NCBI GenBank assembly: GCA_019247495.1
Contig: JAFAOU010000132.1
Coordinates: 74,733-138,732, forward strand
Source: Acidobacteriota bacterium
GTDB taxonomy: Bacteria > Acidobacteriota > Thermoanaerobaculia > Gp7-AA8
DNA: 64,000 nt
Reading direction: 5' to 3'
Shown: one piece after another, positions 34,108-36,944 of the stretch
Numbering within the stretch: position 1 is the first letter of the stretch
Layout: each line of letters begins with the position of its first letter
Notes under the pieces: generated by a model
What the model was told of the DNA's origin: nothing
What the model saw: only the letters and a program-made list of their open reading frames with translations
Databases searched by the model: none
Made by a program: the position numbers and the translations under genes

Positions 34108-34491
34108 ATGCCCAGCGCAGCCCGCGTCGGCGACATGGTTCGGCAGGATTCGCCGCATTGCCATGCGCCCATCCATCCCCCCGCGCCGGTGCCGACGCCG
34201 TCCGCCCACCCCGCGCTTCCGCTGGCCATCATCAAGGGCGAATTCACAGTGCTGATCGGCGGTCAGCCAGCCGCGCGCCTCACCGACACCACCGCGCCGT
34301 GCATGCTGCCCGGCTGCGTTCCCGGCGGACCCGGGATGATCGCGCTCGGCTCGGCCACGGTGCTGATCGGCAACATGCCGGCCGCGCGCGCGAACGACAT
34401 GAGCGCGCACACCTCATGCGTGGCGCCGATCCCCGGACCGGTCGGCAAAATCCTTCCACCCGGCTGCGTCACCGTCATGATCGGAGGGTGA
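34108..34491 (+). CDS. PAAR-domain protein (T6SS spike tip)
   Basis: 127 aa. AARVGDMV start, two PAAR motifs (GGQPAARLTD, GNMPAARAND) and a Cys/His-rich core. Confidence 0.85.
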   Translation: MPSAARVGDMVRQDSPHCHAPIHPPAPVPTPSAHPALPLAIIKGEFTVLIGGQPAARLTDTTAPCMLPGCVPGGPGMIALGSATVLIGNMPAARANDMSAHTSCVAPIPGPVGKILPPGCVTVMIGG

Positions 34492-34495
34492 TCCC

Positions 34496-35449
34496 GTGCG
34501 GCGCAGACACTTCGAAGCGCTGCGGCCTCTCTGCGTCGTCTGCCACAGCGCACCGGTGGCCATCACATCGGCCATCCGCGAAACGGGCGACGACGTCCTC
34601 GAAGGCATTGCCGCCTGCACGAACGGCGAATGCCTGCGCGAGTATCCGATCATCGACGCGATCCCGATCTTCGTAGCGAACATCCGGGCATGGCTTTCTG
34701 CGAATCCGCTGCAGGTGCTGATGCGCGACGATCTCTCGCCCGAGATCGAGAGCCTGATCGGCGATGTCCTCGGCGCGGGATCGGCGTACGACACGCTTCG
34801 GCAGCACGCCGGCATCTACGCGGACTCGCCGCCGCTGTCATTCGACGTCGTCCCTGACGGTCCGTCGATCGACATCGGCTGCGCCGTCGGCACGAGCACC
34901 TTCGCGCTGGCGAAAGAGCATTTGACCGTCGGCGTCGATTTCAACTTCGCGATGCTTCGCATTGCATCGGCTGCCCTTCGTGAGGGGCGCATGCGCTACG
35001 CGCGGCGCCGCGTCGGATTGGTCTATGACCGCGAAGAGCGCGAGGTGGCGGGCTCGGAGCTCATCGACTTCTGGTGTTGCGACGCCGCCAACCTCCCTTT
35101 CGCGCCGGCCACATTCGCCTACGCGCAAAGCATCAACGTCATCGACTGCGTCGCCTCCCCGCACGACGCAATCGCCGAGATCGCCCGCATCCTGCGCCCC
35201 AACGGAACCGCGATCATCGCCACGCCGTACGACTGGTCGTCATCCGCGACGCCGGTCGAACAGTGGCTCGGCGGCCACTCCCAGCGCGGCCCGCACCACG
35301 GCGCCTCGGAACCGGTACTCCGCCGCATCCTCGAAGAAGCCGGACTGCAGATCGTCTCCGAACAGCCATCTGTTCCGTGGCGCCTGCGTCTGCACGATCG
35401 CAGCACGATGGAGTACGCCGTACATGCGGTGACCGCGCGAAGGACATGA
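34496..35449 (+). CDS. Class I SAM-dependent methyltransferase with N-terminal Trm112-like Cys ribbon
   Basis: GTG start 5 nt after the PAAR stop. CVVCHS...CTNGECLREYPIIDAIPIF ribbon, motif I DIGCAVGTS, then DAANLPFAPATFAYAQSINVIDCV and ILRPNGTAIIATPY. Confidence 0.75.
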   Translation: MRRRHFEALRPLCVVCHSAPVAITSAIRETGDDVLEGIAACTNGECLREYPIIDAIPIFVANIRAWLSANPLQVLMRDDLSPEIESLIGDVLGAGSAYDTLRQHAGIYADSPPLSFDVVPDGPSIDIGCAVGTSTFALAKEHLTVGVDFNFAMLRIASAALREGRMRYARRRVGLVYDREEREVAGSELIDFWCCDAANLPFAPATFAYAQSINVIDCVASPHDAIAEIARILRPNGTAIIATPYDWSSSATPVEQWLGGHSQRGPHHGASEPVLRRILEEAGLQIVSEQPSVPWRLRLHDRSTMEYAVHAVTARRT

Positions 35450-35507
35450 GCGGCGATCCCTTCCCGCAGAAAGCGATACGTTAGAATGACCGCCGTCCAT
35501 TTCTCCT

Positions 35508-36944
35508 ATGCCTCGAGGCCGACTCGGACCACCTCCCCCTGGTACATCCGCGATCGACATCAGAGTCGATCCGTCGAGCGTCCGGGAAGCGACGCAAGGT
35601 CTCGCCGCGCATGGCATCGCCGTTCCTTACATTCTCTGGCCGGAGCACGTCGACGCGAGCGCCGGGGAGCTTTTCGCGCGGCGTCCTGAGATCGCCGACG
35701 TCCATCAGAACCAGATGGGCGACTGCTGGTTCCTGGCCTCGCTTGCGGCGACTCTCTATATGGGAGGCCCGCTCGTCATCGAGCTGATGATGTTCGATCT
35801 CGGATCGCACGTGCTGGTCCGGCTTCACGACATGGCCGGGAATCCTTTGTATCTGCGCATCGAGAAATCGCTGGTGCGGGTCCGCGGCGGCATCACCCTG
35901 CATTCCACCGGCGGCCTCTGGCCGGCGATGATGGAGAAGGCGATGAGCGGCTATCGCAAGACCGGCGACGATGACTCCGCGCTGACGTTCGATCCGGACC
36001 ATCCGTCGTACTCACATCTCGCGGGCGGATCGTGCGCGCAGGCGTTCAAGATTCTCCTCGGCGTCGACGCCACCTACGAAACGATCGACCCGGTGCCCTA
36101 CCACTACGACGATGCCAGCCCCGACTTCGCCAAATTCAAACTGATGCTGAAGGGAGAGGATTTGGATTTCGCCACGGTCCAGCAAGTGTTCGGCGGAGTT
36201 GCGGGCGTAGCGAGCGCGTACGTGCTGTACTACGTCATCTGGAGCAGATGGATCGCCAACGCGGTCACGCGGGCCTACGCCGATTTCATGGTGGCTTTCG
36301 CCGGACAGAATGGCCTCGGAGGCGTGTACCGCTACAACGATTTCGCCACCCATCTCAACAACCTCGCGGTGATCCACGCCGCCCGCTGGAACGCCATGGG
36401 CGGGACCCAGGTGCGGATCGCTGACGCGGTGGCCGCCTTTCTAGCCTGGGTACGGGCCCGGCACATCTTCGCCGAGAAGCGCGGGACGGGCTTGTACAAC
36501 GCCGCGCAACTGGCGTTGTTCGAGCGGATCCGAAGTGATCTGGCCAGGCGGTCGCCGCTCTGTTTCGGCACCAGGCAGGAGATCGGCACGGCCGAGCCGG
36601 TACCGGGATCGAGCGGAGAGCCGGTTTCGAGGGGATTGGCGGGACGGCATGCGTACGCCATCCTCGACACACACACCGACGCCGCGGGCCGGAAGTACGT
36701 GCAGGTATTCAACCCGTGGGGCCGCTATGGACGCGGCTACTCGTTCGCGCCGCCCGAGGTGCAGGTGCGGCCGACCGTACGGGGTGTCACACAGCGCGAC
36801 GTCGACGGGCATAGCACCTTCGAGACGGATTCCCCGGTCTTCTGGCTCGAACTGGCCGACGTCACGAAGCGGTGCAACAGGATGTACTACTGCGTCGAGA
36901 AACCCGCCATCACGCGCCGCTGCCACACAAGGCGGGATTTGTGA
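35508..36944 (+). CDS. Calpain-like (peptidase C2-type) cysteine protease; candidate T6SS effector
   Basis: HQNQMGDCWFLASLAA (calpain Cys motif), GRHAYAILD (His) and VQVFNPWG (Asn) occur in the calpain order. No signal peptide. Confidence 0.75.
   Translation: MPRGRLGPPPPGTSAIDIRVDPSSVREATQGLAAHGIAVPYILWPEHVDASAGELFARRPEIADVHQNQMGDCWFLASLAATLYMGGPLVIELMMFDLGSHVLVRLHDMAGNPLYLRIEKSLVRVRGGITLHSTGGLWPAMMEKAMSGYRKTGDDDSALTFDPDHPSYSHLAGGSCAQAFKILLGVDATYETIDPVPYHYDDASPDFAKFKLMLKGEDLDFATVQQVFGGVAGVASAYVLYYVIWSRWIANAVTRAYADFMVAFAGQNGLGGVYRYNDFATHLNNLAVIHAARWNAMGGTQVRIADAVAAFLAWVRARHIFAEKRGTGLYNAAQLALFERIRSDLARRSPLCFGTRQEIGTAEPVPGSSGEPVSRGLAGRHAYAILDTHTDAAGRKYVQVFNPWGRYGRGYSFAPPEVQVRPTVRGVTQRDVDGHSTFETDSPVFWLELADVTKRCNRMYYCVEKPAITRRCHTRRDL

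Follow-up and report, generated by a model that had tools for sequence, protein, structure and literature searches.

The 64-kb window of DNA analyzed here (64% GC; all coordinates are window positions unless another locus is named) holds a type VI secretion system (T6SS) locus in which a calpain-type cysteine protease gene lies between a PAAR–methyltransferase gene pair and a convergent vgrG gene. From comparison of the locus and the protein with their relatives, the protease may on balance be regarded as a cargo toxin of the adjacent T6SS. The genes for a stand-alone PAAR protein, an S-adenosylmethionine (SAM) dependent methyltransferase (MTase) and the protease follow one another head to tail on the plus strand as three open reading frames (ORFs; Table 1). 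The original prediction had placed the protease two genes downstream of the PAAR protein and convergent on vgrG with no small immunity-like ORF behind it; the coordinates confirm this arrangement, and the stop codon of vgrG is reached after just 12 nt. With 58 nt upstream and 12 nt downstream of the protease gene, there is no room for an immunity ORF beside it. The T6SS complement of the window consists of 11 core genes in addition to vgrG and PAAR; a homologue of TssJ was not detected there.

The genes of the window are 77–100% identical to genes of metagenome-assembled genomes labelled Thermoanaerobaculia bacterium (Acidobacteriota). The source organism is uncultured and represented by metagenomes only, and the window DNA was detected in rock, root and rhizosphere metagenomes. 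The junction running from the MTase gene through the protease gene to vgrG was contiguous with zero differences in at least two sequencing runs as assembled by Logan, and two further runs contained it as well; therefore, the arrangement is real and not an assembly chimera. An apparent joint from 35998 to 37550 in contigs was taken as a chance match, the overlap being just 20–21 nt.

The protease contains the motifs QMGDCWFLASLAA, GRHAYAIL and FNPWG in that order, and Pfam Peptidase_C2 (PF00648) matches it in two stretches with 43.4 bits against a cut-off of 23.8. Full-length homologues are scarce, with only about 15 found among 5.8 billion clustered proteins. In the 15-member family alignment, Q67, C73, H381, N402 and W404 are invariant and the Asp of a D-I-x-Q motif is nearly so. 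A profile of the family was compared to solved structures and identified calpain protease cores as the sole significant relatives (E about 1e-12), the match again falling into two stretches, one for the Cys subdomain and one for the His/Asn subdomain. The AlphaFold (AF2) model of the protease (predicted local distance difference test, pLDDT = 85.5; predicted template modelling score, pTM = 0.86) was searched against the PDB with Foldseek, a check that had been proposed together with the original prediction, and the top 38 matches were all calpains (E down to 2.7e-9, TM-score of ~0.6 normalised to the target). No other Pfam domain was identified in the protease, including EF-hand and C2-like domains. 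Neither a signal peptide nor a transmembrane segment was found, the highest Kyte-Doolittle mean over 15 residues within the first 75 aa being 1.1. On the evidence of the motifs, the alignment and the predicted structure, the protease is a genuine clan-CA calpain (C2) core whose active site is intact. Both the calpain-type triad in its expected order and the lack of a signal peptide, as read from the DNA at the outset, have thus held up.

The public gene call for this protein (P0001, 409 aa) starts at Met70 and drops 69 conserved residues, among them Gln67 of the oxyanion hole. The 478-aa form is considered correct because the homologues support it. Antisense ORFs inside the protease gene (for example 36441–36926 on the minus strand) were rejected since their GC content by codon position is that of non-coding antisense frames.

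The eukaryotic calpain cores (calpain-1, -3, -8 and -9; PDB: 2p0r, 6bjd, 2nqa) resemble the window protease in their two-subdomain papain-like core and in the order of the Q..GDCW, HAY and NPWG elements; however, sequence identity is just 11–14%. In contrast to the eukaryotic proteins, the window protease is bacterial and stand-alone, without C2-like or penta-EF-hand domains, and contains an all-helical insertion of ~150 aa. Its Cys–His span is 308 residues, compared to ~157 residues in m-calpain. Calpains are generally viewed as signalling proteases of eukaryotes that are regulated by calcium. Bacterial C2 homologues are rare, patchy in distribution and without calcium-binding domains (Rawlings 2015, PMC4631099). 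Some of these are fused to secretion-related domains (WXG100, type VII secretion system) and were read as toxins by a reviewer of that paper; a link to T6SS or contractile injection is not mentioned in it. The subfamily of the window protease differs from these bacterial calpains with respect to the helical insert and a conserved amino terminal segment of 55 aa.

The immediate surroundings of the protease gene were compared among four close relatives within the Thermoanaerobaculia (L007, L008/L013, L010 and L012) that share a common backbone of SPOR, MORN, PAAR and MTase followed by a convergent VgrG. The PAAR proteins are 90–100% and the VgrG proteins 87–97% identical to those of the window, and the protease gene is absent from all four. 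In L007, L008/L013 and L010, the gap between the MTase gene and vgrG is empty, its 196–352 nt not being alignable between genomes, and no remnants of the protease gene were found in the relatives' gaps. In L012, whose VgrG is 97% identical to that of the window, the gap is occupied by a 191-aa Peptidase_C58 (YopT-like) ORF (L012 positions 10954–11529, plus strand; 29.4 bits against a cut-off of 23). The start of this ORF overlaps the MTase stop, its GC content at third codon positions (GC3) is 0.69 versus 0.81 in its neighbours, and no immunity ORF comes after it. Since the same slot is either empty or filled with another clan-CA effector-type protease in near-identical backbones, the protease gene is, as judged from these relatives, accessory, and its slot between the PAAR–MTase pair and the 3' end of vgrG is variable. 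Two features by which T6SS cargo may be recognised are found together, namely a variable slot that holds an alternative toxin in relatives and adjacency to vgrG and PAAR in a locus where the core genes are present.

An exhaustive profile search extended the comparison to 6749 proteins at E ≤ 1e-3, with 260 at E ≤ 1e-30. Among 144 new representatives, the protease domain is placed C-terminally much more frequently than N-terminally, more than 150 aa preceding it in 64 cases and following it in 10; from these predicted architectures, the placement is the layout of polymorphic toxins. An N-terminal eCIS_core domain (PF13699, formerly DUF4157) is present in 19 of 70 long members and no other family recurs. 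These fusions share the whole core with the window protease, including the helical insert (27–28% identity over ~440 aa, E = 1e-25 to 5e-33). No matches were found between the T6SS proteins of the window and the N-terminal extensions of the long relatives. The DUF4157/eCIS_core domain is a marker of toxins belonging to extracellular contractile injection systems (eCIS), where it is typically N-terminal to the toxin domain, and many eCIS toxins have no adjacent immunity gene (PMC8213781). The fusions thus suggest that the calpain fold is used as cargo by eCIS, a sister machine of T6SS.

The window protease itself is similar to eCIS toxins (Geller et al. 2021, PMC8213781) in that an adjacent immunity gene is often absent from these as well, but differs in having no eCIS_core domain and in its location within a T6SS locus. 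Since no delivery marker other than eCIS_core was seen in the clade, and eCIS_core is not a marker of T6SS, the protease could be a toxin that is delivered by another route, either through an eCIS encoded elsewhere or upon release by lysis, and that is merely close to vgrG. Such a route is very unlikely given that the protease is without eCIS_core, that the 64-kb window showed neither an eCIS operon nor a single eCIS gene, and that three members of the family adjoin T6SS genes.

These three are the window protease and its homologues P0002 and P0004, out of 12 genomic contexts that were available. The closest homologue, P0002 (58% identity, locus L003), ends a few nucleotides from a convergent vgrG whose product is 77% identical to that of the window, and has a different upstream neighbour. 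The second, P0004 (40% identity), directly follows genes for DotU (TssL) and an IcmF_N protein on the same strand. On this contig, the 409-aa neighbour has the IcmF_N domain only and may be considered either a truncated TssM or part of a separate TssL/TssM-like pair. A random gene would be expected beside T6SS genes in less than ~1% of cases by our own estimate. Measured against that estimate, adjacency in 3 of 12 contexts is far above chance, yet the linkage is not obligatory. The other nine contexts have neither a common synteny nor a conserved partner gene, and no conserved neighbouring immunity gene was observed across the homologue contexts. The absence of a common synteny is more in keeping with a mobile toxin than with a housekeeping gene; a housekeeping role with synteny conserved away from T6SS loci, which had been named in advance as an outcome that would speak against a T6SS cargo, is not what these nine contexts present. 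A scan of metagenomes for further contexts returned only distant relatives (26–33% identity), none of which adjoin T6SS genes.

The spread of contexts also bears on whether the vicinity of the T6SS has any meaning. The protease could be a cytoplasmic enzyme with a role in the producer, such as regulated proteolysis, whose gene was recombined into a permissive gap between convergent genes. Such a hitch-hiker would account for the location of most homologues in unrelated neighbourhoods (Mla/MacB, solute-binding proteins, LtrA, bestrophin), for spike proteins that are unchanged in genomes without the gene, and for a protease with no signal peptide, loading marker or immunity gene; bacterial calpains to which no role has been assigned are also on record (PMC4631099). 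This explanation is nevertheless unlikely; the toxin-type C58 protease in the same gap of L012, the two other homologues beside T6SS genes and the eCIS_core fusions in a clade with a predominantly C-terminal protease domain speak against it. The patchy distribution and the lack of conserved synteny further argue against a housekeeping role.

The position of P0004 after DotU and a short IcmF_N gene, and not after spike genes, would be expected if the protease were associated with the T6SS without being its cargo. It would then act in the producer on T6SS components or effectors, either maturing or releasing spike-bound proteins or contributing to turnover of the membrane complex. An immunity gene would not be needed, and papain-like peptidases with releasing or processing roles in polymorphic toxin systems are described in one catalogue (PMC3482391). 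However, four close relatives have the same T6SS but not this gene, so that the machine can do without it. The protease that fills the slot in L012 is of the YopT-like effector type, and the domain takes the terminal position typical of toxins in the eCIS_core fusions. A processing role in the producer is quite unlikely.

Several observations weigh against the protease as T6SS cargo. The protein contains no MIX, FIX, Rhs or PAAR fusion, no DUF4123, DUF1795 or DUF2169 adaptor gene was found beside its gene, and neither a MIX or FIX domain nor a fusion to PAAR, VgrG or Rhs was seen among the 70 long relatives. Nine of the 12 homologue contexts are without T6SS genes within the sequence available. 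The spike proteins of relatives without the protease gene are essentially unchanged (PAAR 100% and VgrG 97% identical in L008); therefore, there is no sign of spike co-adaptation. The GC3 of the protease gene is 0.81 as in the flanking genes, so that base composition gives no sign of recent transfer, and a search for flanking repeats or mobile-element scars around the gene produced just short chance matches. The original prediction of a new T6SS cargo has accordingly been strengthened in part. The accessory slot, the adjacency to vgrG, the C58 alternative, the two T6SS-linked homologues and the eCIS_core fusions speak for it; the missing loading marker or adaptor and the unlinked contexts do not.

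The MTase gene begins with a GTG codon 4 nt after the PAAR stop and encodes a class-I SAM-dependent enzyme with an N-terminal Trm112-like Cys4 ribbon, in line with what was first noted, although the match to Trm112 is weak. It is far more conserved than the protease, with 798 homologues and identities of up to 93%. A PAAR gene is directly upstream of the MTase gene in every locus with upstream sequence (12 of 12, from Gammaproteobacteria, Planctomycetota, Desulfobacterota, Bacteroidota and Myxococcota), and several of these loci are found inside T6SS clusters or beside genes for DcrB/DUF1795 and DUF4123 adaptors. The PAAR proteins are 57–100% identical across six phyla, or 57–80% outside close relatives. 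An N-terminal segment rich in His, Cys and Pro, PHCHAPIHPPAP.P.P..HP, is invariant, and PHCHAPIHPP is the invariant segment of PAAR in loci L007–L026.

Since the PAAR–MTase pair is kept without the protease, the MTase belongs to PAAR and not to the protease. From this conservation, the MTase constantly accompanies PAAR proteins of this type across at least six phyla, whether or not the protease is present. The suggestions that it could stand in for an adaptor, act as another effector or modify the protease are not supported, the pair having been retained in the four relatives without the protease and in all 12 distant loci; on the same grounds, a role as chaperone or immunity protein for the protease was ruled out.

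The closest solved relatives of the MTase by sequence are OvoA-C, OvoM and OvsM (1e-20 to 1e-23, compared to 1e-10 for the next class), which are also the closest by fold (1e-16 to 1e-17). These enzymes are 5-thio/selenohistidine imidazole N-methyltransferases, and carnosine N-methyltransferase, another imidazole methyltransferase, is among the fold matches. This kinship suggests that the MTase may methylate a His or Cys residue of its PAAR tip. No description of a PAAR-linked methyltransferase was found in the open-access papers that were searched. Some of the distant loci contain further genes. In the gammaproteobacterial loci L016, L017 and L020, the gene convergent on the PAAR–MTase pair encodes DcrB/DUF1795 (an Eag-type chaperone), and L020 contains a DUF4123 adaptor gene in addition. 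In L025, a DUF6931 gene and a gene for a 505-aa protein without assignment are located between the MTase gene and vgrG.

Spike-linked cargo effectors are a known kind of T6SS toxin, for which the calpain catalytic fold has probably not yet been reported in open-access text. Like other cargo effectors linked to vgrG or PAAR, the window protease is encoded in a putative PAAR operon, abuts vgrG, and is present or absent among close relatives. Unlike them, its gene is located 3' of a conserved MTase gene and converges on vgrG instead of lying downstream of it, with no adaptor, MIX or FIX. The T6SS cysteine protease Cpe1 is papain-like and antibacterial, with an adjacent immunity protein, Cpi1 (PMC12136450). 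Both Cpe1 and the YopT/C58 proteases are clan-CA thiol proteases, as is the window protease, and are delivered into target cells; compared to Cpe1, the window protease is of fold family C2 and has none of the adjacent cognate immunity genes that mark an antibacterial effector. A catalogue of toxins from polymorphic and Photorhabdus virulence cassette (PVC) systems lists many papain-like clades, with calpain not among them in the portion drawn on here (PMC3482391). A calpain-type effector is not mentioned in the open-access T6SS and eCIS effector-discovery papers that were searched, nor is calpain named in the main text of the open-access eCIS papers. In line with the original prediction, no T6SS effector with a calpain core was found in the open-access literature that was searched.

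With these comparisons in mind, a path from gene to target may be proposed. No terminator-like or sigma-70-like site was found in the 58-nt spacer between the MTase and protease genes, and the 12-nt spacer before vgrG contains no terminator. A scan of 33400–39400 gave no promoter-like sites and two terminator-like sites, fewer than in shuffles. From the spacing and the lack of a terminator, co-transcription with PAAR and the MTase is likely, and the protease gene would be the third of a PAAR–MTase–effector operon. Its product, predicted to be made without a signal peptide, would be loaded non-covalently on the PAAR/VgrG spike. Loading on the spike is favoured because a protease of 52 kDa is too large for the Hcp lumen. 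Once fired into a target cell, the protease would cleave target proteins through the site formed by Gln67, Cys73, His381 and Asn402, which is intact in the predicted protein. The target is more likely eukaryotic, such as soil protists or fungi, than bacterial, because there is no conserved partner or immunity gene, the alternative cargo is YopT-like, and a parallel exists with immunity-less eCIS toxins; this is the weakest step in the proposal.

The observations may be extended further into a two-part generalisation that is at present rather doubtful. In the first part, the calpain clade with the helical insert would be a general immunity-less cargo of contractile injection systems aimed at eukaryotic cells, occurring as a free protein in T6SS spike loci and as an eCIS_core fusion in eCIS. 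In the second part, PAAR and the MTase would form an undescribed, phylum-spanning T6SS module, the MTase acting as an OvoM-like imidazole N-methyltransferase on a His (or Cys) within the invariant PHCHAPIHPP tip of PAAR.

Table 1. Positions of the PAAR–MTase–protease locus, the subdomains and catalytic codons of the protease, and the surrounding T6SS genes.
Feature	Position	Strand	Description
PAAR	34108–34491	+	127 aa, stand-alone spike-tip protein; Pfam PAAR_motif 8.1e-11
MTase	34496–35449	+	317 aa; Methyltransf_11 7.6e-14, weak Trm112 match at residues 27–57
MTase–protease spacer	35450–35507		58 nt
Calpain-core (MEROPS C2) cysteine protease, candidate T6SS cargo	35508–36944	+	478 aa; Pfam Peptidase_C2
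Protease N-terminal segment	residues 1–55		specific to the stand-alone subfamily
Protease Cys subdomain (PC1)	residues ~56–190
Protease all-helical insertion	residues ~195–345		between subdomains, without counterpart in eukaryotic calpains
Protease His/Asn subdomain (PC2)	residues ~346–462
Gln67 codon (oxyanion hole)	35706–35708	+	within QNQMGDCW; aligns to calpain QG.LGDCW motif
Cys73 codon (nucleophile)	35724–35726	+	within QNQMGDCW; aligns to calpain QG.LGDCW motif
His381 codon	36648–36650	+	aligns to calpain HAY...NPWG motif
Asn402 codon	36711–36713	+	aligns to calpain HAY...NPWG motif
Trp404 codon	36717–36719	+	aligns to calpain HAY...NPWG motif
Protease–vgrG spacer	36945–36956		12 nt between convergent stop codons
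vgrG	36957–39014	-	685 aa, without C-terminal extension; TIGR03361 7.8e-184, Phage_GPD, Phage_base_V, Gp5_trimer_C
~925-aa protein, possible second effector	39024–41801	-	start codon inferred
T6SS core cluster	47908–63858	-	Pfam: TssK, TssL, TssM, TssA, TssB, TssC, Hcp, TssE, TssF, TssG, ClpV

The remainder of the window offers some further observations. Directly upstream of vgrG, in a region that differs between relatives and holds other genes in them, is the ~925-aa protein listed in Table 1. It contains the motifs WNLENF, GDFN and SDHIP and is weakly endonuclease/exonuclease/phosphatase-like; the Pfam Exo_endo_phos match is just E = 0.032, below threshold, and there is no match at 1e-3. The first ~135 codons of the long ORF look non-coding. 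This protein may be a second effector. Within the core cluster, the Pfam match of TssM is confined to the IcmF_N part. In the section 45694–63858, an SLT transglycosylase and two ORFs without assignment (262 aa and 213 aa) are located between clpV and the variable region. A plus-strand segment inside the T6SS locus (42479–45653) is kept in relatives and encodes three proteins, namely one of 190 aa without assignment, a PG_binding_1 protein of 215 aa and a methyltransferase of 627 aa. With its MethyTransf_Reg and PKMT C-terminal domains, this methyltransferase, the second one linked to this T6SS, resembles rickettsial protein-lysine methyltransferases.

Two other features are found on the minus strand. 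At 17104–21737, there is an nSTAND1 NTPase of 1119 aa with WD40 repeats, whose gene overlaps the end of the gene for a 499-aa TIR and DUF4062 protein; the two look like a conflict or defence system. A giant surface protein of 3495 aa with DUF11 repeats is encoded at 4043–14530. In L003, a DUF7507/DUF11-repeat protein is likewise encoded upstream of the protease homologue (L003 positions 17–1831, plus strand); its likeness to the DUF11 protein of the window is probably a coincidence.

If the protease is a T6SS cargo, a branch of the calpain fold found in bacteria would have been recruited as ammunition of contractile injection machines, both T6SS and eCIS. The effector repertoire would thereby gain a new catalytic class, and bacterial calpains a concrete biological role. 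The protease would also represent a compact and apparently immunity-free enzyme with targets that are identifiable and possibly eukaryotic. Beyond the protease, the locus exposes a defined cargo slot in the T6SS loci of the Thermoanaerobaculia which can be mined for more effectors, and the conserved PAAR–MTase pair points to post-translational modification of the T6SS tip.

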